A stretch of DNA of 64,000 bases from Escherichia coli. Its GTDB lineage: Bacteria > Pseudomonadota > Gammaproteobacteria > Enterobacterales > Enterobacteriaceae. Both the position numbers and the translations under genes were made by a program. Positions 43,474-58,531 of this stretch are shown piece by piece. The stretch is taken from assembly GCF_003018255.1 (NCBI RefSeq), contig NZ_CP027440.1. One strand, written 5' to 3'. The notes beneath the pieces were generated by a model. The model had not been told where the DNA came from. It worked only from the letters and a program-made list of their open reading frames with translations, and did not search any database. Each line of letters starts with the position of its first letter. Within the stretch, counting starts at the first letter, position 1.

Positions 43474-43500
43474 AAAAAAAGCCACGGAATAAACCGTGGC
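43474..43500 (-). terminator. Rho-independent terminator after allE
   Basis: On the minus strand, GCCACGG-TTTATT-CCGTGGC followed by T7. Confidence 0.7.
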
Positions 43501-43542
43501 AAAATCCAACATAGCTAAAAATAATCAGGCGAGTGGTATGAC

Positions 43543-44268: not shown

Positions 44269-44319
44269 AATCGCACGGTTAGCCAGTAAATCTTCGCGGT
44301 AACCGGTGACGTTATTTAA

Positions 44320-44332
44320 ATATCCCTTTTAT
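44320..44332. repeat. attL core
   Basis: ATATCCCtTTTAT. A 7-bp perfect identity (ATATCCC) is shared with attR, 13 bp with one mismatch. Confidence 0.7.
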
Positions 44333-44410
44333 CAAATAGTGTTTTTTGCTGTTTCATAATGTTTCAGGTCGTTCATTATGTTTTTGATTATCAACGGATT
44401 TGCCATTTTT

Positions 44411-44450
44411 CTTGTTTCAGCTTGTTTCACGTTGTAGCGCTTTGTGCAAC
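44411..44450 (+). promoter_or_regulatory. Four 10-bp-phased TTGT(nn)CA repeats on the attL-side arm
   Basis: cTTGTTTCAg cTTGTTTCAc gTTGTagcgc tTTGTGCAac. Confidence 0.45.
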
Positions 44451-44453
44451 GAT

Positions 44454-44479
44454 CGGTGTAGTTAATGGTGTAGTCAATT
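44454..44479 (+). repeat. Tandem arm-type site, probable integrase arm-binding (left copy)
   Basis: CGGTGTAGTTAATGGTGTAGTCAATT is identical to 58414-58439. Confidence 0.55.
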
Positions 44480-44500
44480 GTGATGACCGGAATCAAAATT

Positions 44501-45730
44501 ATGAGCAGAGCACTTAACAAACTGAGTGACACACAGCTAAGGAAAATCAACGGCACACCCGCCCAAAAAACAGCCTTTCTTAATGACGGTGGAAACCTGA
44601 GCGTCAGGCATTCAACCAGCGGCCTTTTAACCTGGTATTTCACATACAGGGCCGGAACGGGAAGAGGGACACAACCTGAACGCGTTAAGCTGGGAAATTA
44701 TCCCGATCTGAGCCTGAAAGCAGCCAGGGAAAAAGCCGCACAGTGTCGCGCATGGCTGGCTGAGGGGAAAAATCCACGCTATGAACTGAATTACACCATG
44801 CAGGAAGCGTTAAAGCCTGCAACGGTTGGCGATGCGCTCACCTACTGGCTTGAGTCGTACGCAAAGGAAAAGCGCACAGATTACGAATCACTGAAAAGCC
44901 GGATCAATAAAAACATAATCATCAAAATTGGTGCTATGCCGCTGGATAAATGCGAGCTACGGCACTGGCTGGCCTGTTTTGATCAGGTGGCAAAGCGAAC
45001 ACCTGTTACTGCCGGATTCTTGCTACAGACATGCAAACAGGCGCTTAAATTCTGCCGTAGGCGGCGCTATGCAATCAGCAACGTTCTGGACGATCTGAAC
45101 GTGGCGGACGTTGGGAAAAAACCGGATATAAGCGAACGTGTCTTAAGCACCAAAGAACTGGGCGAGTTATTGCAGGCGCTGGATAAAAAAATATTTTCTC
45201 CTTACTACGTCGCGTTAATCCGCCTCCTGATTGTCTTCGGAGCCAGGACGGTAGAACTGAGGTTATCGGAGATCAGCGAGTGGGATTTTACCGAAATGCT
45301 ATGGACCGTTCCGAAGGAGCACAGCAAAACGAAGGTTGCAATATTCCGGCCCATACCGGAAGCGATCCTGCCGTTCGTCACGCGGCTGGTGGAGCAGAAC
45401 AGGCACACGGGCTTATTACTGGGGGAAGTGAAACAGGAGGCTAGCGTATCGCAGTACGGCAGATTAGCGCACAGGAGGCTAAAACACCTTCAATGGTCAT
45501 TGCATGACATCCGGCGCACCTTTACAACGATGCTGAATGATTTGGGCGTGGATCCTCACGTCGTGGAGCAGCTTACAGGTCATCAGATGCCAGGGATGCA
45601 ACGAGTCTATAACCACTCCCGTTATCTCGATGCGAAACGTGATGCGCTGGATATGTGGACGGAGCGGTTAGGGATACTGGCGGGAGCACATGAAAACGTA
45701 ACCACGCTACCAGTAACCAGAATAAAATAA
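44501..45730 (+). CDS. int: Tyrosine integrase, P4-like (N-terminal arm-binding domain)
   Basis: MSRALNKLSDTQLRKI...LSVRHS..G.LTWYFTYR N-terminus typical of P4-type integrases. C-terminal HDIRRT...GH....Y catalytic region. The ORF track begins 7 codons earlier at GTG 44480. Confidence 0.9.
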   Translation: MSRALNKLSDTQLRKINGTPAQKTAFLNDGGNLSVRHSTSGLLTWYFTYRAGTGRGTQPERVKLGNYPDLSLKAAREKAAQCRAWLAEGKNPRYELNYTMQEALKPATVGDALTYWLESYAKEKRTDYESLKSRINKNIIIKIGAMPLDKCELRHWLACFDQVAKRTPVTAGFLLQTCKQALKFCRRRRYAISNVLDDLNVADVGKKPDISERVLSTKELGELLQALDKKIFSPYYVALIRLLIVFGARTVELRLSEISEWDFTEMLWTVPKEHSKTKVAIFRPIPEAILPFVTRLVEQNRHTGLLLGEVKQEASVSQYGRLAHRRLKHLQWSLHDIRRTFTTMLNDLGVDPHVVEQLTGHQMPGMQRVYNHSRYLDAKRDALDMWTERLGILAGAHENVTTLPVTRIK

Positions 45731-45770
45731 TTTTTTTCGTGTTTTTTCAGTATGCGCATACTGGATAAGT

Positions 45771-45825
45771 GCACAGATACAACGTGAAACAATGTGCAAC
45801 AACGTGACACAATCATGAACAAGAG
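45771..45825 (-). promoter_or_regulatory. Five 10-bp-phased TTGT repeats (inverted orientation) in the int-alpA gap
   Basis: ACAA recurs at 45779, 45789, 45799, 45809 and 45819. The run includes ACAACGTGAAAC and ACAACGTGACAC. Confidence 0.45.
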
Positions 45826-46094
45826 GCCAAAAAGAATACAGATTTATAAGTTACTGATTTTTATTGCTCAACTGGTTTTTTATACATTAGCGAATTACGC
45901 GTTAAAGCGTGCGAAAAAAGGCATAAAACAAGATTTTATGCCTTTGTATTAACATGAATTTAAATGATTTTATCCTGATTATTCCTCTTTCTGTAAACCA
46001 TACGACATCAACATTTGCCATTCACCACACTAGCGGGAACAATACGACACAATAAGACACCTGATGACTCTTTAAGAAACGAAAGGGGGCAATA

Positions 46095-46283
46095 GTGTTA
46101 AGCACTGATCGGTTTATACGTGAAAAAGAATGCGAAAAGCTAACAGGCCTTAGCCGCTCATGCCGCTACCGCCTGGAAAAGGCCGGACAATTCCCATCAC
46201 GTCGTAAACTTGGCGGGCGTTCTGTTGGCTGGTCTTTATCTGAGGTTTTGGCCTGGAAGGATAGCTGCAAGGCAGTTCACTAA
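46095..46283 (+). CDS. alpA: AlpA-family (MerR-like/excisionase-type) regulator
   Basis: 62-aa ORF with a GTG start after AAGGGGG. The pattern RFIREKECEKLTGLSRSCRYRLEKAGQFPSRRKLGGRSVGWSLSEVLAW is typical of AlpA. Confidence 0.85.
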   Translation: MLSTDRFIREKECEKLTGLSRSCRYRLEKAGQFPSRRKLGGRSVGWSLSEVLAWKDSCKAVH

Positions 46284-46424
46284 AAAGACTGGCGGCACAC
46301 AGTCGCCACACATCCACTAATACAGAGATATAACTATGAAGATTGAATATGCGCCCGAACGTGGGCGGGGATTCGTTCGCCCTGGTGAAACTGAAAAACA
46401 ACAAAATTGGGGTTTTTCAGGCAT

Positions 46425-46452
46425 AAAAAAAGCGGCCCCGATATGGAGCCGC
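46425..46452 (-). terminator. Rho-independent terminator for the leftward arc-like operon
   Basis: On the minus strand, GCGGC-loop-GCCGC followed by T7. It lies inside the 248-aa plus-strand ORF, which argues against that ORF. Confidence 0.55.
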
Positions 46453-46526
46453 CTTTCTGAACAATTAACCTGCTGCGCCTTATGTGTATGTGATCCCAAA
46501 CATAAGCACGGGGATGATAGCCGCTA

Positions 46527-46724
46527 TCAGGCTGGTGGGCAATTCCTGTTTTGTCCGTATTGCGCCGCCATTTTCGCTCGTTCAGAGCGCGAATATTTTT
46601 TTAGAAACTCATCAAGGACAAAAGCGCATGGTGCGAATCTTTCTGATTCATGCTCGAGCGCCATATTTTCGTGCTCTCTGTTCGTTTTTTGCGATGGTGT
46701 ATCGCTTGATTCTTTGTTGGTCAT
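46527..46724 (-). CDS. Hypothetical 65-aa protein, second gene of the leftward operon
   Basis: ATG preceded by AGGT. Followed about 70 nt later by the minus-strand terminator. No family was recognised. Confidence 0.4.
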   Translation of the reverse strand: MTNKESSDTPSQKTNREHENMALEHESERFAPCAFVLDEFLKKYSRSERAKMAAQYGQNRNCPPA

Positions 46725-46781
46725 TGTGTGTACCTGTAAAGCAATGCGCCGTAGTACCTCACACCACGGCGCTGATAGTTT

Positions 46782-46973
46782 TTATCCTTTGGGGTCTATG
46801 CCGCGCCGCTTTAGTTCAGTGCGCCCCAACTCTTTAAGCCAGTTGGCTAGGCTTATGCCGTCGCTCTGTGCTTCTTTGTCGAATTGCTCTTTTAGCTCTG
46901 GAGAAATTCGCATTCTGAATTGTGGGGATTGCCCGTCCCCTTTAGGGCTTTTATCGCGTTTGATTGTTGACAA
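46782..46973 (-). CDS. Arc-like ribbon-helix-helix repressor
   Basis: SPQFRMRISPELKEQFDKEAQSDGISLANWLKELGRTEL aligns by eye with P22 Arc MPQFNLRWPREVLDLVRKVAEENGRSVNSEIYQRVMESF. The TTG start at 46973 follows AGGTGG; the ORF-track start at 47054 would put the operator palindromes in coding sequence. Confidence 0.6.
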   Translation of the reverse strand: MSTIKRDKSPKGDGQSPQFRMRISPELKEQFDKEAQSDGISLANWLKELGRTELKRRGIDPKG

Positions 46974-47016
46974 GTGGCCACCTATTAAATTAGCCTTTCT
47001 ATTGTTAGGTGGCCAC
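46974..47016. promoter_or_regulatory. Twin palindromic operators (GTGGCCAC) in the divergent control region
   Basis: ATTGTTGACAAGTGGCCACCTA (core 46974-46981) and ATTGTTAGGTGGCCACCTTA (core 47009-47016), 35 bp centre to centre. Confidence 0.4.
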
Positions 47017-47107
47017 CTTAACACAAGAGCACTTAAAAAAGCAAAGCCCCGCAAGTGCCATTACCACTCGCAGGGCTTCTAACCAACAACGTAAACGAGG
47101 AGCCGTT

Positions 47108-47308
47108 ATGGTTGCCGTAAATCATATACCACACCTTGTACACACACAAACTGCCTTTGTGTGGCGTTTTCTGGCCCTGAGTGCCGGAGAATCTCAAATC
47201 ATCCACGTAACCGCCTGGACGGAACGCGAAGCGCGTAACCGTTGCCCGTCCGGTTGTGTTGCTGTATTTGCCGCCCGTATTCGTCAGGGGGAAACCTATG
47301 CACAATAA
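47108..47308 (+). CDS. Icd-like (host cell division inhibitor-like) small protein, first gene of the rightward operon
   Basis: ATG after GAGGAG gives 66 aa. The motif ..VWRFLALSAGESQIIHVTAWTEREARNRCP.GCVAVFAARI resembles Icd-like proteins of P4-type elements (from memory). Confidence 0.65.
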   Translation: MVAVNHIPHLVHTQTAFVWRFLALSAGESQIIHVTAWTEREARNRCPSGCVAVFAARIRQGETYAQ

Positions 47309-47528
47309 AACCACACCGGACGCAGCAGAAGAAGCAATGCAAATACTGATACGTGCGCTCGTTGATGTTACCCACATGGTGGAGATTATGGAGAGAAAAT
47401 CACAGTCGGAGCACGACAAAAGAAAACTTAAAACAATAAAAATAATTGCCAAAAACTCGCTGATAAAAGTTACAGACATCCTTAATGAGGACATTAAAAG
47501 AATAAGGGAGAAAATTTGTGATGCATAA
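47298..47528 (+). CDS. Hypothetical 76-aa helical protein
   Basis: ATG after GGGGGAAACCT. Overlaps neighbouring genes in operon style. Confidence 0.5.
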   Translation: MHNKTTPDAAEEAMQILIRALVDVTHMVEIMERKSQSEHDKRKLKTIKIIAKNSLIKVTDILNEDIKRIREKICDA

Positions 47529-47748
47529 AATCCCTTTTGAAGTATTAATCCACTCTGAAAACGCATTAATTAAAGCACGCGAAATGAATGCGTTGTTAAT
47601 TAAATTAATTGAAGTGCCGGAAGGTGGTGAGGAATCAGGTGTATTAATGTTTGCAGCCATTCAGACATTACTATCGCCTGTTATTGATGAACTGGATAAG
47701 GCAATGGCAATTCACGAAAATAATAACGCGCCCCACACCGGAGAATAA
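47518..47748 (+). CDS. Hypothetical 76-aa protein
   Basis: Start overlaps the previous stop. No family was recognised. Confidence 0.5.
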   Translation: MMHKIPFEVLIHSENALIKAREMNALLIKLIEVPEGGEESGVLMFAAIQTLLSPVIDELDKAMAIHENNNAPHTGE

Positions 47749-47753
47749 AAATA

Positions 47754-48053
47754 ATGAAACTTAAATATTCTGGCTTAACTGCCAGTGGCAAAACTCGCAC
47801 TAAATTCATGCGCGGTGATATTTACCGCGACCAGTACGGCGGCACGGTAATGATTAAGGGCGTGGAGGAACGGCGCGTAACTTACCGCCGTGAAGGTTAC
47901 GAATATGATTGCGTGATGCCCGTTTATCAGTTCGACCGTGATTTTTCTCTGGTGCAGGCAGCGCAACGCAGCAAGCCCACCAGCAGGGAGAAAGCACGCG
48001 CCAATATTCAGGAAATAAAAAAGATGCTTAACGTATTCAGGGGTAAAAAATGA
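47754..48053 (+). CDS. DUF4222-like small protein
   Basis: 99 aa. The pattern YRD.YG..V.I.GVE..RVTYRREGY...CVMP...F.R.F recalls DUF4222 of P4-like islands (from memory). Confidence 0.55.
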   Translation: MKLKYSGLTASGKTRTKFMRGDIYRDQYGGTVMIKGVEERRVTYRREGYEYDCVMPVYQFDRDFSLVQAAQRSKPTSREKARANIQEIKKMLNVFRGKK

Positions 48054-49804
48054 AACTGGCACCGAACGTAAAACAGCAGTCACGCGGCATAAAACACAAA
48101 GAAACAGAAGTCATTATTTTTGCGGGTAGTGATGCCTGGTCACACGCAAAACAATGGCAGGAACATGACGCGCGTATGGCCGGAGATAATGAGCCTCCTG
48201 TGTGGCTTGGGGAGCAGCAGTTATCAGAACTGGATAAGCTGCAAATTGTGCCGGAAGGCAGAAAATCCGTGCGCATATTCAGGGCCGGATATCTTGCACC
48301 AGTAATGATAAAGGCGATTGGTCAAAAGCTGGCGGCGGCTGGTGTACAGGATGCAAATTTTTATCCTGAGGGTATGCACGGCAAGGAGGTGCAGAACTGG
48401 CGCGAATACCTGGCCCGTGAACGCCAGAATCTTTCTGATGGTCTGGTCATTGAGCTTCCGGTAAAGCAAAAGGCGCAACTTTCGCAGATGGCGGACAGTG
48501 AGCGCGCGCAGCTGCTTGCCGATCGCTTTGATGGCGTTTGCGTACATCCTGAAAGTGAAATTGTTCACGTATGGCGCGGCGGGGTATGGTGTCCGGTCAG
48601 CACAATGGAACTTAGCCGCGAAATGGTGGCGATCTATTCAGAGCACAGGGCCACTTTCAGCAAGCGCGTAATCAATAACGCCGTGGAAGCGTTAAAAGTT
48701 ATTGCCGAACCAATGGGCGAGCCGTCCGGCGATTTGCTGCCGTTCGCCAATGGTGCGCTTGACCTGAAAACGGGGGAATTTTCCCCGCACACGCCGGAGA
48801 ACTGGATCACCACGCACAACGGCATTGAGTACACGCCACCAGCACCAGGGGAGAATATCCGCGACAACGCGCCAAACTTTCATAAATGGCTTGAGCACGC
48901 AGCCGGAAAAGACCCGCGCAAGATGATGCGTATATGTGCCGCGCTGTACATGATTATGGCGAACCGGTACGACTGGCAGATGTTTATTGAGGCCACCGGA
49001 GACGGCGGGAGCGGTAAAAGTACATTCACACACATAGCCAGCCTTCTGGCAGGGAAACAGAACACGGTAAGCGCTGAAATGACATCGCTTGATGATGCTG
49101 GTGGACGTGCGCAGGTTGTCGGGAGTCGTCTTATCGTCCTGGCTGACCAGCCGAAATATACAGGCGAAGGAACGGGCATCAAGAAAATCACGGGCGGCGA
49201 CCCCGTGGAAATTAACCCGAAATATGAGAAGCGTTTTACGGCGGTAATCAGGGCGGTGGTGCTGGCTACCAACAATAACCCGATGATATTCACCGAACGG
49301 GCCGGAGGTGTGTCACGTCGTCGCGTAATTTTCCGTTTCGACAATATCGTCAGTGAGGCCGAAAAAGACAGGGAGCTACCGGAAAAGATTGCGGCTGAAA
49401 TCCCTGTCATTATCCGCCGATTGCTGGCGAACTTTACCGACCCTGAGAAGGCACGGGCTTTACTACTGGAACAGCGTGACGGTGATGAAGCTCTGGCAAT
49501 AAAGCAACAGACGGATCCGGTTATTGAGTTTTGCCAGTTCCTGAATTTTCTGGAGGAAGCACGCGGCCTGATGATGGGCGGCGGTGGCGATTCAGTGAAG
49601 TACACGACCAGGAACAGCCTTTACCGCGTCTATCTGGCGTTTATGGCATACGCAGGCAGGAGCAAACCGCTAAACGTGGCTGAGTTCAGCAAGGCCATGA
49701 AGCCAGCGGCGAAAGTTTACGGGCATGAATATATTACGCGAAAAGTTAAGGGAGTAACGCAGACCAACGCAATTACAACAGACGATTGCGACGCGTTTTT
49801 ATAA
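48050..49804 (+). CDS. P4-family primase / SF3 helicase replication protein (pri-rep)
   Basis: 584-aa ORF with Walker A GDGGSGKST and Walker B LIVLAD. D5-N-like region upstream. The iteron field follows immediately. Confidence 0.9.
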   Translation: MKLAPNVKQQSRGIKHKETEVIIFAGSDAWSHAKQWQEHDARMAGDNEPPVWLGEQQLSELDKLQIVPEGRKSVRIFRAGYLAPVMIKAIGQKLAAAGVQDANFYPEGMHGKEVQNWREYLARERQNLSDGLVIELPVKQKAQLSQMADSERAQLLADRFDGVCVHPESEIVHVWRGGVWCPVSTMELSREMVAIYSEHRATFSKRVINNAVEALKVIAEPMGEPSGDLLPFANGALDLKTGEFSPHTPENWITTHNGIEYTPPAPGENIRDNAPNFHKWLEHAAGKDPRKMMRICAALYMIMANRYDWQMFIEATGDGGSGKSTFTHIASLLAGKQNTVSAEMTSLDDAGGRAQVVGSRLIVLADQPKYTGEGTGIKKITGGDPVEINPKYEKRFTAVIRAVVLATNNNPMIFTERAGGVSRRRVIFRFDNIVSEAEKDRELPEKIAAEIPVIIRRLLANFTDPEKARALLLEQRDGDEALAIKQQTDPVIEFCQFLNFLEEARGLMMGGGGDSVKYTTRNSLYRVYLAFMAYAGRSKPLNVAEFSKAMKPAAKVYGHEYITRKVKGVTQTNAITTDDCDAFL

Positions 49805-49815
49805 TTTTTTGTAAA

Positions 49816-50047
49816 AGCCCTCTACCCCATCTACCTGAATGAAGTAAACGCATATTATTCAACATGATAAGTGGGTAGAGGGCTAGGTAGAAGGCTAATA
49901 AAAGCTCTCTACCCCTTCTACCTGATTTTATCAGTTTCAGGTAGCAGGGTAGACGGCAGGTAGAGGAGCCCAAAAAGCTATCTACCCGCTGAAAGCCGCG
50001 CCATTACTGACATGATGAGCATTCGGGTAGATGGGTAGAGGGGGGGG
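49816..50047. repeat. Putative replication origin: iteron field
   Basis: At least 12 GGTAGA/TCTACC hexamers. Perfect inverted repeats AGCCCTCTACCC (49816-27) / GGGTAGAGGGCT (49873-84) flank a 45-bp AT-rich spacer. A second inverted repeat is AGGTAGAAGG (49885-94) / CCTTCTACCT (49914-23). Confidence 0.6.
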
Positions 50048-50089
50048 AGGCACAACTAAAAACTTTTTAAACGAGGGGGGGGAAAATAA

Positions 50090-50404
50090 ATGCGCATACA
50101 TCAAAATCACTTAACAAATATGCCAGCCGAAAACATGAATCAGGGGCGACAAATGACCAAAATTCGCAGAGACAGAACACAGGCAAAATATAAAGCGTTA
50201 GACATGACAGAGCTTTCCTTAAAGGTGGCAATCAAAGCGATAGACCACCACACACGGGCAGGATACGCGAAGGAACATCCCGACCTGATAAGCGCATTCA
50301 TGACCACGGCGGCGGCAAACTTTGCCACGTTGACAGAACGTGAGATTGCCGAAGCGGAACAGGTAACAACCATCAACGTTAAAACCGGAGAGGTGGAATC
50401 ATGA
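50090..50404 (+). CDS. Hypothetical 104-aa protein
   Basis: ATG after GAGGGGGGGG. 4-nt overlap with ssb. Confidence 0.55.
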   Translation: MRIHQNHLTNMPAENMNQGRQMTKIRRDRTQAKYKALDMTELSLKVAIKAIDHHTRAGYAKEHPDLISAFMTTAAANFATLTEREIAEAEQVTTINVKTGEVES

Positions 50405-50811
50405 CAGCACAGATAGCCGCTTACGGGCGGCTGGTGGACGACCCGCAGGTAAAACAGACCAGCAAGGGCACACCGATGACGCTGGTTCGTATGGCGGTAT
50501 CGCTGCCATGCAGCCAGGCACATGACGGACAGGCGACGTTATGGTTATCGGTTATCGCATTTGGCAAACAGGCCGATTTCCTGGCTAAACATCAAAAAGG
50601 CGATGTTGCCAGCGTATCCGGCACGATGCAGGTAAGCCAGTGGACCGGACAGAACGGGGAAACGCGGCGGGGGTATCAGGTTATTGCAGACAGCGTAATC
50701 AGTGCCCGCGCGGCACGTCCAGGCGGGAACAGACGCAAAACCACAGGCACACAGGGTAATCAGCCACCAGCGGGAGGCGATGACCCTTACGGTGACGGTA
50801 TTCCGTTCTGA
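50401..50811 (+). CDS. ssb: Single-stranded DNA-binding protein
   Basis: 136 aa with an OB-fold N-terminus, a Gly/Pro/Gln-rich linker and the acidic tip DDPYGDGIPF. Confidence 0.85.
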   Translation: MTAQIAAYGRLVDDPQVKQTSKGTPMTLVRMAVSLPCSQAHDGQATLWLSVIAFGKQADFLAKHQKGDVASVSGTMQVSQWTGQNGETRRGYQVIADSVISARAARPGGNRRKTTGTQGNQPPAGGDDPYGDGIPF

Positions 50812-50821
50812 GGGGGTGACG

Positions 50822-51070
50822 ATGGTACATGACCGCATAGCGGAGGAACTCGAGGCAAAAGGCTTTTACCGGAGGGCGTCGGCGCGATGGGGTGAAGTCA
50901 TGCAACTGGTGGAGACAGACAAGGAACGGCATCAGGTTACGATGCGACGGCTGGAATGTTCCAGGAAGGCACAGAGGCCACCGGAGCCGCCAACGGAGAA
51001 CTACGCAGACCTGAGAAATGCAGTAAATCGCACTTACGCAGACATGGGGCTGAGCAAATTAGCAGAGTAG
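50822..51070 (+). CDS. PerC-family transcriptional regulator-like protein
   Basis: 82 aa with ATG after GAGGGGG. AEELEAKGFYRRASARWGEVM resembles the conserved PerC/Pch N-terminal motif (from memory). Confidence 0.6.
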   Translation: MVHDRIAEELEAKGFYRRASARWGEVMQLVETDKERHQVTMRRLECSRKAQRPPEPPTENYADLRNAVNRTYADMGLSKLAE

Positions 51071-51130
51071 GAATATCAGAACCACACCACGCAGCCGGAG
51101 CAATCCGGCTTTTTGTTATTTTTTGTAAAT

Positions 51131-51160
51131 TATTTGTTCGTGGTTGTTCCACGTTGTTCA
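51131..51160 (+). promoter_or_regulatory. Three 10-bp-phased TTGTTC repeats upstream of the capsid gene
   Basis: TTGTTCG TGG TTGTTCC ACG TTGTTCA. The 12-mer GTTCCACGTTGT is identical to the copy at 58384-58395. Confidence 0.45.
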
Positions 51161-51374
51161 CTGAGCGGATCGGCATATTTTACCCGAACTGAATCATGAT
51201 TATTCTCGCCCGTGGTGCCAGGACGCTGGGGCCACTTTCCCGCCTGTTAATGTGCTCGCCAATATTCATTACCAGGCGGGAAAACGATCGGTGCGATTGC
51301 TGATTTCCTTATGAAAAACGGTTGAGTGTTTGCCGCGTCCTGGAGTTCCTTACTTAACCCCAGGACTTTTTTTT

Positions 51375-52532
51375 ATGCCGAGAATAATCGAATTACGCCA
51401 GCAGAAAACCGCCATTAAAAATCAGATGCGCGACATGCTGGAGAACGCTGAAAAAGAAAACCGCAGTCTTAACGATGCTGAGGGCGCAAAATTTGACGAA
51501 TTACGCGCTAAAGCTGAATCCCTCGATAAAGACATTTCCCGCCTTGAAGCCATTGCAGACGAAGAGCGCAGCAAGCCAGGTAAAAGCAGCCAGACCACTG
51601 ACCCCGCAGAACTACGCAGCTACATTCTGACAGGTGAAACCCGCGCATTAAGTACAGGCGTTCCCGCTGATGGTGGTTATACCGTTATCCCCGAACTGAA
51701 CACCGAAATCATGCGAATGCTGGCGGATGAATCCACCATGCGCCGCATCTGTACCGTGAAAAAAATCAGCAGCAACGAGTTTAAGCAGCTTGTTTCCGCT
51801 GGCGGTGCGACCGTTAACCACGGTGAAGAGGGTAAGGCACGCGAACAGACCAGCACCCCGCAGATTAACGAGGTGAGCATTAAGCTGTATCCGGTCTATG
51901 CGTACCCGCGCACCACACAGGAAATCGTGGATTTTTCCGATGTGGACATCCTTTCATGGCTGACGGGTGAGATTGGCGACACCTTCACGGAAACCGAAGA
52001 AAGCGATCTGGTTGTGGGCGACGGTGACAAAAAAGCAAAAGGTTTTTTATCCGTACCCCGTGCAGAGAAGAACGACAAAGAGCGTGATTTTGGTACGTTG
52101 CAGGTAATTAAACCTTCCGAATCTCTGGCGTGGACATCTGCGGACCCGCTGATCGACCTGAAATTTGCATTACGTAAAAAATACCGCAAAAACGCGGTCT
52201 GGGTGGTTAACTCCACGACGGCGGCAAAACTCCAGAAGGTGAAGAACGCGAACGGTGATTACATCTGGCGTGACCGTTTACAGGCGGGTGATCCTGATAC
52301 GTTGCTGGGCCTTCCGGTCGAATATCTGGAGTTTATGCCTGATAACGTTATTGCCCTGGGTGACTTCAAACGCGGTTACTACATTGTTGATCACGAAACA
52401 GGTGTTCGCACCAGACCGGACAACCTCACAGAGCCGGGCTTCATCAAAATTTTCACGCAGAAATATTTAGGCGGTGGCGTGGTGGATTCGAACGCGATCA
52501 AGATTCTGGAACTGCCACAGGACGACGATTAA
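51375..52532 (+). CDS. HK97-fold major capsid protein with N-terminal coiled-coil (delta/scaffold-like) domain
   Basis: 385 aa from ATG 51375. N-terminus IELRQQKTAIKNQMRDMLENAEKENRSLNDAEGAKFDELRAKAESLDKDISRLEAI, followed by a Phage_capsid-like body. Confidence 0.9.
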   Translation: MPRIIELRQQKTAIKNQMRDMLENAEKENRSLNDAEGAKFDELRAKAESLDKDISRLEAIADEERSKPGKSSQTTDPAELRSYILTGETRALSTGVPADGGYTVIPELNTEIMRMLADESTMRRICTVKKISSNEFKQLVSAGGATVNHGEEGKAREQTSTPQINEVSIKLYPVYAYPRTTQEIVDFSDVDILSWLTGEIGDTFTETEESDLVVGDGDKKAKGFLSVPRAEKNDKERDFGTLQVIKPSESLAWTSADPLIDLKFALRKKYRKNAVWVVNSTTAAKLQKVKNANGDYIWRDRLQAGDPDTLLGLPVEYLEFMPDNVIALGDFKRGYYIVDHETGVRTRPDNLTEPGFIKIFTQKYLGGGVVDSNAIKILELPQDDD

Positions 52533-52542
52533 CAGCATACAG

Positions 52543-52571
52543 AAGGGGCTTAAAAGCCCCTTTAGTGTTTT
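52543..52571 (+). terminator. Strong hairpin with T-rich tail between the capsid and protease genes (possible attenuator)
   Basis: AAGGGGCTT-AA-AAGCCCCTT followed by TAGTGTTTT. Confidence 0.4.
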
Positions 52572-53144
52572 ATGGGTGAAAAAATTATGAAGAGTATGGA
52601 AATCCGGTCATCGGAAATCACCACCAGCGGAGCCGGTACGCTGACGGGCTACGTTGTTCGCTGGGATAAGCTTTCAGAACTGTTATGGGGTGAGTTTTAC
52701 GAAAAATTCCAGCGGGGGGCGTTTACTGAATGGCTTGCGGCGGGTAATGACGTTCGCGGCCTGTATGAGCATGACCACAGCATGTTACTGGGGCGCACCC
52801 GTTCCGGCACGCTGAAACTGGAAGAGGACGAAACAGGGTTACGCTTTGAACTGACCCCACCGGATACCAGTACAGGGCGCGACGTTATCGAACTGGTTAA
52901 GCGTGGGGACATCTCGGGGATGAGCTTTGGCTTTCGCTCCCGTAAGGATGTATGGGATACCACAACAGATCCATGCGTGCGCACCGTGCTGGTGGCGGAA
53001 CTGTACGAAATTACCGTTACATCGGTACCGGCTTACCCCGATTCCGGCGTGGAGCTGGCCCGCCGTTCCCTGTATGAGCAGCACCCCGAAAAAATGCCGC
53101 GTGCGGATAATCGCCGCTGGTGGGTGGATTTAGCGGGGGTGTGA
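52572..53144 (+). CDS. HK97-family prohead protease
   Basis: 190 aa. The pattern G.L.GY...W...S......F.E.F..GAF........DV..L..H......LGR...GTL.L.ED..GL.F...L is typical of this family. Alternative starts at 52587 and 52596. Confidence 0.85.
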   Translation: MGEKIMKSMEIRSSEITTSGAGTLTGYVVRWDKLSELLWGEFYEKFQRGAFTEWLAAGNDVRGLYEHDHSMLLGRTRSGTLKLEEDETGLRFELTPPDTSTGRDVIELVKRGDISGMSFGFRSRKDVWDTTTDPCVRTVLVAELYEITVTSVPAYPDSGVELARRSLYEQHPEKMPRADNRRWWVDLAGV

Positions 53145-53145
53145 T

Positions 53146-54357
53146 ATGTGGCCTTTCAGAAGAAAAAAAGAGCAGCGCAGCATGACGCTTGATAAGTTTA
53201 TGGCGCTGGCTGGCACATCGAACACGGGGGCGGGTGAGTACGTATCATCGGGGACAGCGGAATCACTGCCCGCCGTCATGAACGCCGTGACGGTCATCTC
53301 TGAGGCGGTGGCTACCATGCCGTGTTACCTGTACCTGGTACGCAATGAGAAGGGGAAGGAGGCCCGCGAGTGGCTTGATTCTCATCCGGTCGATCACATC
53401 CTCAACGAGCGCCCGAACGCGTGGCAGACTCCCTACCAGTTTAAGCGAATGATGATCCGCCACTGCCTGTTAAACGGTAATGCTTATGCGGTGATTCAGT
53501 GGGGGCGTGATGGTTTTCCGGTGGCTTTACATCCTTACCCGCCGCAGTCGGTGAACGTGGAGCAGACAGGTGATCATAACTGGCGCTACTGCATCACTGA
53601 CGCCTACACCGGAAACACCCGCAACTATTTACCGTGGGAGGTTCTCCACCTTCGTTACTCCACGGATGACGGTTTTATGGGGCGCTCACCTGTAACCATC
53701 TGCCGCGAATCGCTGGGGCTTGGGCTGGCCCAACAACGCCACGGCGCGAGCGTGATGCGTGATGGCATGATGGCGGCAGGGGTTATCACGTCAGGCGAAT
53801 GGCTGGACGGCGTGAAGGGCAAACAGGCATTAGCCGCACTGGAACGCTACAAAGGGGCCAGAAACGCCGGAAAAACGCCCATCCTTGAAGGGGGGATGAG
53901 CTATCAGCAGCTGGGCATGAGTAATCAGGATGCCGAATGGCTGGCCTCCCGTCGCTTCACCATTGAAGACATCGCCCGAATGTTCAACGTCTCGCCGATT
54001 TTTTTGCAGGAATACAGCAACAGCACCTACAGCAACTTCAGCGAGGCAAGCCGCGCATTTCTCACCATGACGATGCGCCCGTGGCTGGCGAACTTTGAGC
54101 AGCAGATAAAAAACGCCCTGCTGGTGGCCTCGCCTGTACCTGGTATCCGGTATCAGGTGGAGTTTGACAGCGCGGACCTGTTACGGGCCACACCTGGCGA
54201 ACGCTTTGCCACCTATGAACGCGGCATCAAATCCGGCGTTATGTGCCCGAACGAAGCCCGCGAACGTGAAGGGCTGTCCCCGCGTGATGGTGGTGATGAG
54301 TTCAGCCAGGCATGGAAACAGGAAGTAAAAATCAGCGAGGGAGAAAAACCGGAATGA
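53146..54357 (+). CDS. HK97-family portal protein
   Basis: 403 aa, adjacent to the protease and similar to phage portals. Confidence 0.9.
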   Translation: MWPFRRKKEQRSMTLDKFMALAGTSNTGAGEYVSSGTAESLPAVMNAVTVISEAVATMPCYLYLVRNEKGKEAREWLDSHPVDHILNERPNAWQTPYQFKRMMIRHCLLNGNAYAVIQWGRDGFPVALHPYPPQSVNVEQTGDHNWRYCITDAYTGNTRNYLPWEVLHLRYSTDDGFMGRSPVTICRESLGLGLAQQRHGASVMRDGMMAAGVITSGEWLDGVKGKQALAALERYKGARNAGKTPILEGGMSYQQLGMSNQDAEWLASRRFTIEDIARMFNVSPIFLQEYSNSTYSNFSEASRAFLTMTMRPWLANFEQQIKNALLVASPVPGIRYQVEFDSADLLRATPGERFATYERGIKSGVMCPNEAREREGLSPRDGGDEFSQAWKQEVKISEGEKPE

Positions 54358-54692
54358 ACATAGGGCGACTGCGTGACAGGATAACGATTCAGACCCTGAA
54401 ACAGACCAGGGATATAACCGGCGAAATACTCGAAACGTGGGAGGACGGTCACACACTCTGGGCAAGCGTGAACATGGTCAGCAGCAAGGAGGCCATTTCA
54501 TCGGGCGCAGAGCTGGCGATTGGTACCGTAAGGATCTGGATACGGTACCGGAAGGACATCAACGCCACCTGCCGGATAAAGGTCAGTACGGGGCCGCTGG
54601 CGGGGCGTGTACTGAATATCATCGGGCAGCCGCTGCCGGATGCCGCCAGGACACGCCTTGAAATTCTTTGTCGTGAGGGCGCGGAAAAATGA
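54354..54692 (+). CDS. Head-tail joining / head closure protein
   Basis: 112 aa starting MNIGRLRDRITIQ, typical of the head-tail joining family. ATGA overlap with the portal gene. Confidence 0.8.
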   Translation: MNIGRLRDRITIQTLKQTRDITGEILETWEDGHTLWASVNMVSSKEAISSGAELAIGTVRIWIRYRKDINATCRIKVSTGPLAGRVLNIIGQPLPDAARTRLEILCREGAEK

Positions 54693-54985
54693 CAGAAGAA
54701 CTTATCACCCTGGAAGAAGTGAAACTCCATTGCCGCATCGATGGCGACGATGAAGACCAGTTAATCAGCGGATACATTGCCGCATCGCTTGAGGCGTGCC
54801 AGATACACATAGGCAGGCGCTTTGATGACGGGCTGGAGTTCACGCCAGCCATAAAGATTGGCTGCATGATGTTTATCGCTCACCTGTATGAAAATCGCCA
54901 GATTGTCGCGGATAACGCAAAAACACGCGTACCCATGACGATAGGCGCACTCTGGACGGCTTACCGTGATGTGGGGGTGTACTGA
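54689..54985 (+). CDS. gp6-like head-tail connector protein
   Basis: 98 aa starting LITLEEVKLHCRIDGDDEDQLISGYIAAS, typical of this family. Confidence 0.8.
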   Translation: MTEELITLEEVKLHCRIDGDDEDQLISGYIAASLEACQIHIGRRFDDGLEFTPAIKIGCMMFIAHLYENRQIVADNAKTRVPMTIGALWTAYRDVGVY

Positions 54986-55425
54986 TGCCGTGGCAACCAT
55001 TAAGACGATGCACAGAACCAGGCTGTAACAGGCGCGTTAAATCCGGCAAGTGTGAGGAGCACAGGCGGGCGGCATGGCGTGCAGAGGATGCCAGACGAGG
55101 ACACCGCCGCGCGCGTGGATATTCCAGACAGTGGGACAAATACCGCGCCATGTATCTGAGTAAAAACCCGTTATGCGTGCGATGCCTTGAGAAGGGGATA
55201 TATACGCCCGCCGTGGTGGTGGATCACATTATCCCGATTAATGGCGGTGATGATGTTCTCTTCTGGCCCGAATGGAACCATCAACCATTGTGCCAGGCGT
55301 GTCATAACCAGAAAACGAAATGGCTTGATCCGGCAACAAAAAGCAAGCGTGCCGCAGGTGGATTTCGTGAAGAGGAAGAACGGGCTGCTAACCGCAATAA
55401 CTGGATGTATGACGCTGATGAATGA
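54985..55425 (+). CDS. HNH endonuclease (packaging-associated)
   Basis: 146 aa with two Cys pairs and DHIIPINGG....WNHQPLCQACHNQKT. Located directly upstream of terS. Confidence 0.9.
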   Translation: MPWQPLRRCTEPGCNRRVKSGKCEEHRRAAWRAEDARRGHRRARGYSRQWDKYRAMYLSKNPLCVRCLEKGIYTPAVVVDHIIPINGGDDVLFWPEWNHQPLCQACHNQKTKWLDPATKSKRAAGGFREEEERAANRNNWMYDADE

Positions 55426-55591
55426 GCGGGAACAAAACCGCCTTATCCGTGGACTTATAAGGCAGCGTGACGCATGGAAGACACAGGAAACAGGGCATAA
55501 AGATAAAGCGTCAGGACGCGCAGAACGCATCACAGCGAAGCGATTAACCGACCGTGACCGCGAGGTTATGGAATGTTTCCGCAATCGCTGA
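55409..55591 (+). CDS. Possible 60-aa basic protein
   Basis: ATG overlaps the HNH gene end. No family was recognised; weak evidence. Confidence 0.3.
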   Translation: MTLMNEREQNRLIRGLIRQRDAWKTQETGHKDKASGRAERITAKRLTDRDREVMECFRNR

Positions 55592-55713
55592 TGAGGCTGT
55601 ATGACGGGGTGGGGGGCGTTTTCAGGACAAACCCGACCCCGCCGGGCACCGAACGCCTCCTCAAATTTTTATGCACGGGAATTTTTTGAAAAATAATCTG
55701 GCGAAAAATAAGC
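55592..55713. other. Candidate cos region between HNH and terS
   Basis: 122-bp non-coding gap. It has a G-rich block GACGGGGTGGGGGGCG (55603-55619), a partly complementary GACCCCGCC, and then an AT-rich tract. Confidence 0.35.
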
Positions 55714-56070
55714 ATGGCAAGACCACCGAAAGCCCCCGCCTACCTGGATGATATCGCCGTGAAGCAGTGGCGGGAAAAATCTAGGCAGCTTGCGGAACGG
55801 GGAGACCTGACCCCCGCCGACTGGAGCAATCTGGAACTGTATTGTGTCAACTACTCCATTTACCGGAAAGCCGTTGCAGACCTTGCGGCGCGCGGGTTCA
55901 GCATTGTTAACAGTCAGGGCGGCGAGAGCAGAAACCCCGCATTAAGCGCAAAATCCGACGCTGAAAGAGTGATGATAAAAATGGCCTCTTTGCTCGGTTT
56001 TGACCCGATAAGCCGCCGTAAAAATCCACCGGAAACAGAAGAAGAGGACGAGCTTGACCGCCTGGAATAA
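55714..56070 (+). CDS. Terminase small subunit (P27 family)
   Basis: 118 aa. The pattern PKAP.YLD..A...W.......E.G.LT..D...LE.YC..Y..YR.A matches this family. Confidence 0.85.
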   Translation: MARPPKAPAYLDDIAVKQWREKSRQLAERGDLTPADWSNLELYCVNYSIYRKAVADLAARGFSIVNSQGGESRNPALSAKSDAERVMIKMASLLGFDPISRRKNPPETEEEDELDRLE

Positions 56071-57715
56071 GTACGCAGAAGACGTAAAAACGGGCAAAAT
56101 TCCGGCCTGTAAACGGCTGAAACAGGCCGTTAAACGGTACTTTTCGGACCTTGAAAGCCCCCTTTACACGTTCGATCGTGAGGTTGTGGAGCGGTTTATT
56201 GCCTTTTCCAGGGTGTGCCCGCACGTAAAAGGGCCGATGCGTGGCAGACCCATTGAGCTGGAGCCGTGGCAGCAGTTCGCCTTTGCGTGCATCCTCGGCT
56301 TTAAGGTTAAGGCCACCGGACGGCGCAAATACACGAGCGCCTTTATCGAAGTGCCGCGCAAAAATGCGAAATCCACGACCGCCGCGATTCTGGCTAACTG
56401 GTTTCTGATTATGGAGAACGGGCAGCAGGATATTTACACCGCAGCGGTGAGCCGTGACCAGGCGCGGATCGTTTTTGATGATGCGCGTCAGATGTGCCTT
56501 TTATCCCGACCGTTACGCAGGCGGGTGAATATTCAGGCCCACAAGGTGATGCACCCGAAAAGCAACAGCCTGTTAAAGCCGCTGGCAGCAAAAGCGGCAA
56601 CCATCGAGGGAACAAACCCCAGCCTTTCCATCGTGGACGAATACCACCTACACCCCGATAACGGCGTTTATTCCGCGCTTGAGCTGGGGATGGGCGCACG
56701 TCCCGAAGGGCTGTTATTTGCCATTACCACATCGGGCAGTAACGTCGTTTCAACCTGTAAACAGCACTATGATTATTGCTGCCAGATCCTGGACGGCGAA
56801 GAGGTCAACGATTCAATTTTTGTGCTGATTTACGAGCTGGACGACGAAAACGAGGTTGATGATCCGGCGATGTGGATAAAGGCTAACCCTAACATCGATG
56901 TTTCCGTGGATCGTGAAAAACTGGCCTCAACCATCCAGAAAGCGCGGGGTATTCCGTCGCAATGGGTGGAGATGATGACAAAGCGATTTAATATCTGGTG
57001 CCAGGGGGCTACCCCGTGGATGGGTAACGGCGCATGGGCTGAGTGTGCCGGAACGTTCACGGAGGAAGATTTACACGGGCAGGAGTGTTACGCGGGGCTG
57101 GACTTATCATCAACCAGCGATATTTCCAGCGTGTGCTATGCCTTTCCGGTCGGTAAAAATATCATGCTGGTTTCCCGTCATTATCTGCCGGAGTTCCAGC
57201 TACAGAACCCCGCCAATAAAAACCGCGCTGTCTATCGCCAGTGGGCTAAAGCGGGCTGGATACGCACAACGCCAGGTGACTGCATTGATTACGACCGGAT
57301 CAGAGATGACATCATGCAGGATGCGGAGAAATTTAATATCAGGCTGGTGGGCTTTGATACGTGGAACGCCACGCATCTCAGGACGCAATTACAGGGGGCT
57401 GGTTTTGAGGTGGAGCCGTTCCCGCAAACCTACCTCAGATTCAGTCCGGCGGCGAAATCGTTCGAAGTTTTTGTTAACCGCAGGGTGATTGTGCATCGTG
57501 GCGATCCGGTGTTGTCCTGGTCGATGAGTAACGTCGTGATGCAGAGTGACGCGAACGCCAATATCAAGCCGAACAAGAAAAAATCACCGAACAAGATAGA
57601 CCCGAGCGTAGCGGCGCTGATGGCGTTTGGTACATTCCAGGCAGAGCATGAGGATTTTGCTTTTGATATAAGCGACAGCCACCGCCAGAAACTGGAAGAA
57701 TTTAGCGGGGTGTAA
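56054..57715 (+). CDS. Terminase large subunit
   Basis: 553 aa with a TTG start after AGAGGA. Contains an ATPase region (VPRKNAKST, IVDEYH) and a C-terminal nuclease region. Confidence 0.9.
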   Translation: MTAWNKYAEDVKTGKIPACKRLKQAVKRYFSDLESPLYTFDREVVERFIAFSRVCPHVKGPMRGRPIELEPWQQFAFACILGFKVKATGRRKYTSAFIEVPRKNAKSTTAAILANWFLIMENGQQDIYTAAVSRDQARIVFDDARQMCLLSRPLRRRVNIQAHKVMHPKSNSLLKPLAAKAATIEGTNPSLSIVDEYHLHPDNGVYSALELGMGARPEGLLFAITTSGSNVVSTCKQHYDYCCQILDGEEVNDSIFVLIYELDDENEVDDPAMWIKANPNIDVSVDREKLASTIQKARGIPSQWVEMMTKRFNIWCQGATPWMGNGAWAECAGTFTEEDLHGQECYAGLDLSSTSDISSVCYAFPVGKNIMLVSRHYLPEFQLQNPANKNRAVYRQWAKAGWIRTTPGDCIDYDRIRDDIMQDAEKFNIRLVGFDTWNATHLRTQLQGAGFEVEPFPQTYLRFSPAAKSFEVFVNRRVIVHRGDPVLSWSMSNVVMQSDANANIKPNKKKSPNKIDPSVAALMAFGTFQAEHEDFAFDISDSHRQKLEEFSGV

Positions 57716-57728
57716 TGAGGTCAGCAGC

Positions 57729-58010
57729 ATGACAGAAGCCGAAATACTGCGATTAATCCGCCGCGTCTCTGGAATCAGCCAGCAGGCTGACGAACAGACC
57801 ACGCAGCCGGACAGCGTGACAGCCGAAAATTATGCGCGTGTTGTTGCTGAGGTGATGCGCCGTGATGGTATCCAGCTTAATGATGCGGATATGCGCGACA
57901 TACGGATCCGCGTTCTTGAAATGCTGGCCTACAATCGCCGTGTAGAGATGTACAGGGAGAAAGAGAAAATTACGTACAACTGGAAGAAGCCGGAGCGGTT
58001 ACGGCGGTAA
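57729..58010 (+). CDS. Hypothetical 93-aa protein, last ORF of the island
   Basis: ORF follows terL by 13 nt. No family was recognised. Confidence 0.5.
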   Translation: MTEAEILRLIRRVSGISQQADEQTTQPDSVTAENYARVVAEVMRRDGIQLNDADMRDIRIRVLEMLAYNRRVEMYREKEKITYNWKKPERLRR

Positions 58011-58370
58011 CGTGTTGATTTAAAGGCGGCTCAATTTTGAGCCTCGTAACTGGTTGATATTTCCGGCAACCTCAATTTGAGGAGAGCGGAAACATCATCC
58101 CTCACATTCTGAATGGTCATAATGACCACGCAGGCCATCGAGGCAACCATAGCGATCATCGTTACGGTTGGAGCTTTCCGCCATTGGTGGAAAAGGTGCA
58201 CATCTGGATCATCATTACGGTGATCAAGGGTATGTAAAACCCACCAGCCTGATTAAAGGTTAACCGGAAAAAAAATCCGGTAGCCCCGTTATGGGGATCC
58301 CCATATCGACATTAACGCCCCTCATGAATTGGTGCGCTTCCCCCTGGAAAGATTACCCGCCTGTATATTT

Positions 58371-58400
58371 CTTGTGTCTATTTGTTCCACGTTGTTTCAT
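58371..58400 (+). promoter_or_regulatory. Three 10-bp-phased TTGT repeats on the attR-side arm
   Basis: cTTGTGTCTA tTTGTTCCAC gTTGTTTCAT. Confidence 0.45.
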
Positions 58401-58413
58401 ACAGTGCACCGAA

Positions 58414-58439
58414 CGGTGTAGTTAATGGTGTAGTCAATT
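58414..58439 (+). repeat. Tandem arm-type site (right copy)
   Basis: CGGTGTAGTTAATGGTGTAGTCAATT is identical to 44454-44479. Confidence 0.55.
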
Positions 58440-58512
58440 TGCGATTTTTGGCACTTTTTGTAGTGCGGGTTATTTAATTAAATCAATGTGTTATTGAAAA
58501 TAAGTTATAGAT

Positions 58513-58525
58513 ATATCCCATTTAT
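58513..58525. repeat. attR core; retains the orphaned allE start (ATG GGA TAT on the minus strand)
   Basis: ATATCCCaTTTAT. The minus strand reads TAA GGAGTTATAA ATG GGA TAT immediately after the allC stop. Confidence 0.7.
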
Positions 58526-58531
58526 AACTCC

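Follow-up and report, generated by a model that had tools for sequence, protein, structure and literature searches.

A 14.2-kb Escherichia coli island at allE that very probably is an apparently intact capsid-forming satellite of the EcCIEDL933 lineage

Phage-inducible chromosomal islands of the capsid-forming kind (cf-PICIs) are a described family of satellites whose prototype, EcCIEDL933, resides in E. coli O157:H7 EDL933 between roxA and phoQ (NZ_CP008957.1, approximately 1680148-1695618). The SatelliteFinder model defines the family by 11 core components, with tails and holins as forbidden classes (Alqurainy et al.; PMC10085698), and the combination of portal, adaptor and connector sets cf-PICIs apart from classical phage-inducible chromosomal islands (PICIs) (Alqurainy et al.). 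A region of this kind lies at 44320-58525 of a 64-kb stretch of E. coli chromosome (contig NZ_CP027440.1; the whole stretch is referred to here as the window). It is very probably an integrated, apparently intact cf-PICI of the EcCIEDL933 lineage, and calling it so is a correct identification of an already known kind of element, not a discovery.

The biology of the prototype has been worked out in some detail. EcCIEDL933 is induced by the helper phages HK106 and HK446 in a process that requires alpA. Mutation of any of its head or packaging genes abolishes transfer of the island and leaves the phage unaffected; mutations in the head genes of the helper have no effect on island transfer, whereas mutations in its tail genes do (10.1101/2022.09.08.507074). 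Transfer also drops severely when gene 1792 of the island is mutated (10.1101/2022.09.08.507074; gene numbering as in 10.1101/2025.02.11.637232). The EcCIEDL933 capsid measures 47.5 nm, has T=4 symmetry and is built from a protein that is cleaved at residue 93. These small capsids take up island DNA only and need helper tails to become infective. The range of phages whose tails fit changes when the adaptor and connector genes are swapped, and tail-less filled capsids are released that can be completed by the tails of other phages, across species too (10.1101/2025.02.11.637232). The preliminary description of the window had recognised the class as a known one, and family, prototype, capsid structure and mechanism are indeed all published. 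It had further proposed that the element builds small capsids of its own, packages its DNA with its own HNH endonuclease, small terminase (TerS) and large terminase (TerL) and borrows helper tails, each point of which experiments on EcCIEDL933 or its relatives have borne out, and that tail-less filled heads could dock the tails of unrelated phages, which was likewise published for them in 2025 (10.1101/2025.02.11.637232).

All 11 cf-PICI core components are found in the island and neither of the forbidden classes is, which corresponds to Type A in the SatelliteFinder scheme. An integrase gene and attachment (att) repeats stand at the ends, alpA follows int, and a primase-replicase gene adjoins a set of iterons; the right half encodes a capsid protein and prohead protease, the trio of portal, adaptor and connector, and HNH, TerS and TerL. 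Genes were assigned from Pfam, NCBIfam and PHROGs (Table 1). Each member of the PICI/P4-like left module that had been reported for this DNA (int, alpA, an icd-like gene, pri-rep with iterons, and ssb) is present and intact by these assignments, and so is the full HK97-type head set with HNH, a P27-type TerS and TerL, every core gene of which has a Pfam or NCBIfam assignment. The order capsid-protease-portal-connectors followed by hnh-terS-terL is that described for Proteobacterial cf-PICIs, and none of the named genes contains an internal stop.

The packaging module is nearly that of the prototype. Gene order is the same throughout, the DNA is 97.3% identical over 51092-58019, and all ten packaging-module proteins align over their full length and without stops, those of the capsid and terminase genes included. 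The call made from the sequence was correct. The core packaging proteins are 95.5-100% identical to those of EcCIEDL933, as against the 50-90% reported within the cf-PICI family (Alqurainy et al.). The capsid protein matches Protein Data Bank (PDB) entry 9gyi, a 385-residue 'major head protein' from a cf-PICI capsid solved by cryo-electron microscopy, with E=7e-255. Its residues 1-92 form a scaffold-like region, a STGVPAD cleavage motif follows at residue 93 and the Pfam domain begins at about residue 100; position and motif are those reported for cleavage of the EcCIEDL933 capsid, and the delta-like N-terminus noted earlier is thus supported. The cos site probably lies in the non-coding gap before terS, as the HNH/cos/terS layout of HK97 would have it.

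The claim that 14.2 kb lies between direct repeats holds at exactly the coordinates given for it. The island, a unit of 14,193 bp in the E. coli chromosome, is flanked by imperfect 13-bp direct repeats (12 of 13 bases identical, ATATCCC[T/A]TTTAT). An uninterrupted allC-allE junction is found in E. coli DETEC-S792, with flanks 99.6% identical to those of the window, and this empty site confirms the repeats as the true boundaries of the insertion. In the alignment the left flank of the window agrees with the empty site as far as 44326 and the right flank does so from 58513 onwards, and therefore the crossover falls within the 7-bp ATATCCC. Seven base pairs is a normal overlap size for a tyrosine recombinase. 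When 44251-44326 is joined in silico to 58520-58580, the resulting string is exactly present in DETEC-S792; the restored attB is predicted to contain TTAAATATCCCATTTATAAC, and the predicted attP consists of 58365-58519 joined to 44327-44479. Judged from the sequence, the island entered through the action of its own tyrosine integrase at the ATATCCC overlap, which spans the start codon of allE.

Inside each end of the island lies one copy of a second repeat of 75 nucleotides, the two copies being 80% identical. Each carries two tandem GGTGTAGTYAAT sites (four matches in all, against 0.34 expected by chance). Because the integrase has an N-terminal arm-binding domain, we infer that the GGTGTAGTYAAT repeats are the arm-type sites of attP, and the arm modules are probably bound by this domain and by AlpA or an excision factor.

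Neither tail nor lysis genes were found between the repeats, as had been reported. About 50 open reading frames (ORFs) on both strands, comprising the named genes, those in the gaps and the larger alternative-frame and antisense ones, were searched with Pfam or PHROGs, with no match to any family of tail, baseplate, fibre, holin, endolysin or spanin proteins. The named genes take up 11.9 of the 14.2 kb, and the gaps hold both att arms, the region upstream of alpA, the origin, the leader and promoter regions of the packaging operon and the 122-bp spacer before terS. No unassigned ORF of the island reaches endolysin length. Hydrophobic ORFs flagged by a Kyte-Doolittle scan, which took in all 130 ORFs of 35 or more amino acids (aa), lie nearly all within known genes or antisense to them; two fall in gaps, 44332-44643 and 58031-58201 (both on the minus strand), and have no Pfam or PHROG match. 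The latter, a 56-aa frame with one strongly hydrophobic segment, was considered as a holin and rejected, as it is not conserved across related islands: it is intact in the OkiPb01677 island, has acquired indels in EDL933 and is broken by stops in the AST240 island, and is probably not a gene.

Relatives of the island are widespread. Part of it is matched in 1,713 of 5,426 complete E. coli genomes, and in 233 of these the match extends to at least 80% of it. One and the same architecture is seen at three different att sites, roxA/phoQ, tqsA and allE, and the unit therefore moves as a whole; the att cores are GGACATATTT, ATAACAGCA and ATATCCC, respectively, each beside a common arm sequence.

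Several points weigh against reading the region as an intact cf-PICI of the EcCIEDL933 lineage. That this copy excises, replicates, assembles capsids and is transferred is predicted from its likeness to the prototype, and the cos site owes its position only to the HK97-type layout. The replication module is a different one, with a 584-aa D5_N/DUF5906 primase in the island and a 710-aa DUF927 protein in EcCIEDL933. The five substitutions that separate the adaptor from its EcCIEDL933 counterpart could shift its tail preference. The att core repeats mismatch at one position, which is however expected if the crossover falls within ATATCCC, and no helper prophage was found elsewhere in the 64-kb window, the rest of which is chromosomal backbone.

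The lack of a helper in the window would also suit a stranded cf-PICI, a copy that is intact in sequence and yet immobile, either because its host lacks a compatible inducer or tail donor or because its regulation or an att site is subtly defective. Of the 17 resident prophages of EDL933 itself, none acted as an efficient helper (10.1101/2022.09.08.507074), and the closest full-length match to the island in complete genomes is just 96.1% identical. Stranding is nevertheless improbable, given that all genes are open and near-identical to those of a functional element and that both att arms and their binding-site repeats are intact. Of the six loci fetched from draft assemblies, moreover, five have an identical integrase beside allE, and these five are all of the fetched E. 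coli loci that show the allE region; the integrase is indexed in 98 blocks of the collection. Tail-less capsids, too, can form without an inducing phage and be finished by exogenous tails.

It is more improbable still that the region is a decayed HK97-like prophage which kept its head and terminase genes and lost those for tail and lysis by deletion, and is no dedicated satellite. The head genes are of HK97 type and the next-best solved relatives of the capsid are HK97-family capsids, but it has clean boundaries with paired att arms, and its chromosomal flanks (allE and allC) join to the exact empty site. The contiguous tail, lysis and lambdoid immunity genes of an HK97-like prophage are absent, the left arm is of PICI/P4 type and not lambdoid, the gene set and order recur intact at the three att sites, and the prototype functions as a satellite. 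No more than 29% of the packaging module, at 75-79% identity, is shared by any of 50,697 phage records, and the best phage homologues of the adaptor are at most 53% identical to it; both findings fit the published view of these packaging modules as satellite-specific. Least credible of all is a classical PICI or P4-like satellite that remodels helper capsids, for although int, alpA, the icd-like gene and the P4-family primase are common to those families, the island has a capsid, protease and all four of portal, adaptor, connector and TerL of its own, which the classical PICI model forbids (PMC10085698), and no Sid, Psu, Delta or capsid-size redirecting family matched any scanned ORF.

For an intact cf-PICI of this lineage, the near-identity with the prototype allows its mechanism to be transferred to the present copy. 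It is proposed that a lambdoid helper phage of HK106/HK446 type would switch on alpA, which is conserved together with its upstream region between the island and EcCIEDL933, and that AlpA would in turn cause the island to excise, to replicate from the iterons and to express its packaging operon. The capsid protein, cut at residue 93, would assemble with protease and portal into small T=4 heads, and HNH, TerS and TerL would cut the cos DNA and package it into them as 14.2-kb unit lengths. The adaptor and connector would then complete the portal vertex, to which the tails of the helper, or after lysis the free tails of a compatible phage, would dock to give infective particles. The genome of the island has about 92% of the 15,461 bp (15.46 kb) of EcCIEDL933 and should still package given the limits of cos packaging. 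HK106-type tails are the likeliest, though not certain, partners of these heads, because adaptor and connector differ from those of the prototype by just five residues and one residue. The preliminary description had made this connector pair the only interface with the helper; the pair does set tail specificity, but induction through alpA and lysis are interfaces as well, as that text itself had said.

Table 1. Features of the island, with window coordinates, supporting matches and relation to EcCIEDL933
Feature	Coordinates	Strand	Evidence	Relation to EcCIEDL933
attL core repeat ATATCCCTTTTAT	44320..44332	.	predicted crossover in ATATCCC (44320-44326); empty-site comparison and simulated excision	
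Left att arm module	44405..44479	+	motif TTTCACGTTGT at 44425-44435; two tandem GGTGTAGTYAAT at 44455-44478	
Tyrosine integrase, 409 aa, P4-type with arm-binding domain	44501..45730	+	Pfam PF13356 (Arm-DNA-bind_3) and PF00589	92.4% identical
Two inverted TTYCACGTTGT copies between int and alpA	45779..45809	-		
AlpA regulator/excisionase-like, 62 aa	46095..46283	+	Pfam Phage_AlpA PF05930 E=5e-18	98.4% (61/62) identical
Small gene, 65 aa, function unassigned	46527..46724	-	90% identical to WP_000182306.1 of the OkiPb01677 island; motif HESERFAPCAF kept in diverged copies	
Arc-like ribbon-helix-helix repressor candidate, 63 aa, TTG start	46782..46973	-	PHROG_228 'Arc-like repressor' E=1.9e-6	62/63 identical
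Icd-like protein, 66 aa	47108..47308	+	NCBIfam NF033153 E=5.5e-18; PHROG matches	
Two small ORFs, function unassigned (47298-47528, 47521-47748)	47298..47748	+	PHROG_5146, PHROG_2196; counterparts annotated in OkiPb01677 island	
DUF4222 protein, 99 aa	47754..48053	+	Pfam E=5.4e-24	
Primase-replicase, 584 aa, P4 family	48050..49804	+	D5_N, DUF5906, TIGR01613	
Origin iterons GGTAGANGG, 8 copies, both orientations	49818..50042	.		
Conserved hypothetical protein, 83 aa	50153..50404	+	PHROG_1231 E=1e-49	
Single-strand DNA-binding protein (SSB)	50401..50811	+	Pfam SSB	97.8% identical
PerC-family regulator, 82 aa, accessory gene	50822..51070	+	Pfam PerC E=1e-35	
TTCCACGTTGT motif upstream of packaging operon	51147..51157	+	just after terminator-like hairpin 51093-51110	
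HK97-fold major capsid protein, 385 aa	51375..52532	+	Pfam Phage_capsid PF05065 E=1.7e-61	99.2% identical (3 substitutions)
Prohead serine protease (S78)	52572..53144	+	Pfam PF04586 E=7e-48	97.4% identical
Portal protein	53146..54357	+	PF04860 E=7.5e-91	99.0% identical
Head-tail adaptor/head closure protein, 112 aa	54354..54692	+	Phage_HCP PF05521, TIGR01563; PDB 2kz4 E=1e-69	95.5% identical
gp6-like head-tail connector, 98 aa	54689..54985	+	Phage_connect_1 PF05135, TIGR01560	99.0% identical
HNH endonuclease, packaging cofactor	54985..55425	+	Pfam HNH PF01844	99.3% identical (1 substitution)
60-aa ORF	55409..55591	+	PHROG_3173	100% identical; gene 1792 by gene order
Non-coding gap (122 bp) between HNH block and terS	55592..55713	.	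putative cos	
Small terminase, P27/Terminase_4 type	55714..56070	+	PF05119 E=1.3e-23	100% identical
Large terminase, 553 aa, TTG start	56054..57715	+	TerL_ATPase PF03354 and TerL_nuclease PF20441	98.2% identical
Conserved hypothetical protein, 93 aa, final operon gene	57729..58010	+	PHROG_1561 E=1e-54	91% identical
Right att arm module	58365..58439	+	motif TTCCACGTTGT at 58385-58395; two GGTGTAGTYAAT sites at 58415-58438	
attR core repeat ATATCCCATTTAT	58513..58525	.	minus strand has displaced allE start codon (ATG GGA TAT)	

Insertion at ATATCCC takes allE (ylbA, ureidoglycine aminohydrolase) apart. At attL the start codon has been changed from ATG to AAG (44329-44327, minus strand) and is directly preceded by in-frame TGA TAA. 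The ribosome-binding site AAGGAG together with ATG GGA TAT is stranded at attR, 14.2 kb away and adjoining the allC stop, and allE is for this reason severed both from the allD-allC transcript and from its own start. Simulated precise excision yields the exact wild-type allC-allE junction with the allE start included, and the disruption would thus be reversible by this route. The two parts of the affected region lie at 44260-44335 and 58513-58535 of the window, and the annotation pipeline PGAP calls a shortened allE of 247 aa in genomes with an insertion here. An Rfam partial match to the small RNA STnc480 just downstream of allE (43500-43536) scores 42 bits against a gathering score of 72 and is cut by the edge of the searched stretch.

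allE is an occasionally used site at which other cf-PICIs insert too. An integrase-bearing element is found there in 12 of the 5,426 complete genomes, and these elements include cf-PICIs and a shorter one of about 10 kb. ylbA or allE was not found as an att site in the text of the PICI literature, whose published att-site table is an image and so lies outside a text search. The E300010 island at the allE site (L006, 17372-26974) is only about 10 kb long, ends after a 499-aa 'major capsid protein' and is without portal or terminase; an internal stop interrupts the adjacent allC. The element may be a truncated cf-PICI. A sequence-identical integrase also occurs at another chromosomal site in GCA_029205885.1 (L008, 2800-2840), beside DctM/DctP and rplI genes, with the same ATATCCC core and a flank that resembles the island's own right end (TAGATATATCCC); this location may be a secondary attB or belong to a different host species.

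The differences between the integrase and that of EcCIEDL933 are concentrated at residues 124-142, in the central core-binding region, where the Pfam match (Phage_int_M) is weak. In this patch (44870-44926) 10-11 substitutions set the integrases of this island and of the AST240 island, both at allE, apart from those of the roxA/phoQ and tqsA sites. The patch is likely to be a determinant of core-site specificity.

Between alpA and the icd-like gene the small repressor that had been reported for the left half does exist, to judge from PHROG_228 and from the almost identical copy in EDL933, but it lies on the minus strand and is divergent from the icd-like operon. The top PDB match of its product is P22 Arc, including the PQF β-strand motif, which is weak when taken alone (E=0.2), and a homologue with 48% identity is annotated on the minus strand in the OkiPb01677 island. 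Gene calls in draft assemblies independently put two genes on the minus strand here, in the region of the Arc-like gene and its 65-aa neighbour. On the plus strand a Cys/Ser/Arg-rich ORF of 248 aa (46336-47082) overlaps the Arc-like gene in antisense and has no family match; its EDL933 counterpart is a 247-aa plus-strand hypothetical protein in RefSeq (WP_001304194.1), and it corresponds to what the literature calls a variable gene downstream of alpA. In a codon-position test of this ORF against the small minus-strand genes both frames share the third position. The minus-strand genes are preferred because of their homology at the protein level, and the plus-strand ORF looks like an antisense artefact. 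The Arc-like gene is unannotated in the RefSeq record of the prototype, where it is hidden because the opposite strand is annotated. A palindrome near the gene, GGTGGCCACC, was considered as an operator and dropped, being absent from EcCIEDL933 and from the OkiPb01677 and AST240 islands.

Five copies of the motif TTYCACGTTGT lie within the island: each att arm has one, two stand upstream of alpA and the fifth is upstream of the capsid operon. The window has seven copies against 2.25 expected. The positions of the motif are conserved in the EcCIEDL933, OkiPb01677 and AST240 islands. It is a candidate site for AlpA or an excision factor, which would link excision to the expression of the packaging genes. 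If the Arc-like protein is a maintenance repressor, induction would combine de-repression with activation by AlpA. The broader proposition that Gram-negative cf-PICIs carry an overlooked Arc-like maintenance repressor and that TTYCACGTTGT marks an AlpA regulon coupling excision and packaging is speculative and, on balance, rather unlikely.

As for the other elements of the left half, the iteron GGTAGANGG is found 11 times in the whole window against 0.83 expected. The PerC-family protein of another E. coli PICI, EcCIMP1, has been reported as a repressor of the LEE virulence genes (PMC11773190), and on this ground the PerC-family cargo gene of the island may influence host gene expression. PADLOC identified no defence genes among nine small or unassigned island proteins, and Rfam (E<=0.1) gave no match inside the island, including none to a C4/CI-type immunity RNA. 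Consensus scans of the island for promoters and terminators showed no enrichment over shuffled sequence, and individual hairpins are accordingly taken as hints only. One of them, a G+C-rich hairpin with a 15-bp stem (47043-47079), stands directly upstream of the ribosome-binding site of the icd-like gene; it is followed by a T-run on the minus strand and is terminator-like there. It could be the end of an antisense transcript or an attenuator of the plus-strand operon.

For the field this island adds little, since family, prototype, capsid structure and tail borrowing are published and its packaging proteins are near those of the prototype. Its value is mainly that of a well-delimited example of mosaic construction, in which one packaging module is combined with varied replication modules and retargeted integrases. 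It also offers three modest leads: the overlooked Arc-like repressor, the candidate AlpA motif that ties the att arms to the packaging promoter, and the loss of the allE start that excision could restore.

This mosaic construction is best seen against the named relatives. EcCIEDL933 shares the arm-type sites and TTYCACGTTGT copies at the same positions, but its DUF927 protein resembles the island primase over the first 162 residues only, the block of small genes at 47291-47739 and the spacer between PerC and capsid genes differ, and the att core is the roxA/phoQ one. The best full-length match among complete genomes is the OkiPb01677 cf-PICI, located in tqsA (NZ_AP042483.1), which is 97.2% identical in DNA from the icd-like gene to the end of the packaging operon and has the same primase and origin. 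By this comparison the island reads as a mosaic whose replication module (584-aa primase and origin) is of the OkiPb01677 type and not that of EcCIEDL933. The OkiPb01677 integrase is 89% identical, the att site and core are those of tqsA, and four small minus-strand genes, one of them a YlcI/YnfO gene, occupy the alpA-icd block as against two in the island. The AST240 cf-PICI (NZ_AP043633.1), in turn, occupies the same allE site with the same attL and attR sequences and the same overall layout. Its integrase is 95.1% identical and has the residue 124-142 signature of the island, whereas its packaging module is more distant and a ProQ/FinO gene takes the place of PerC; between portal and HNH the annotation shows just one head-tail joining gene (L007, 11776-12078), with no separate adaptor/head-closure gene called.

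Beyond the cf-PICIs, the island resembles HK97 in its HK97-fold capsid with an N-terminal scaffold and SxGxxAD cleavage motif, its S78 protease, portal and gp6-type connector, and in its predicted HNH-dependent cos packaging with TerS and TerL. It differs in having only 14 kb and no tail, lysis or lambdoid regulatory genes, and the EcCIEDL933 capsid is a T=4 shell of 47.5 nm as against the T=7 of HK97. With the classical Gram-negative PICIs (EcCICFT073, EcCIED1a) and P4 it has in common the int-alpA-replication left arm, a P4-family primase and, by prediction, AlpA-dependent helper induction. Those elements, however, use the capsid proteins of the helper and redirect its packaging or capsid size, whereas the island described here has a head and terminase set of its own.

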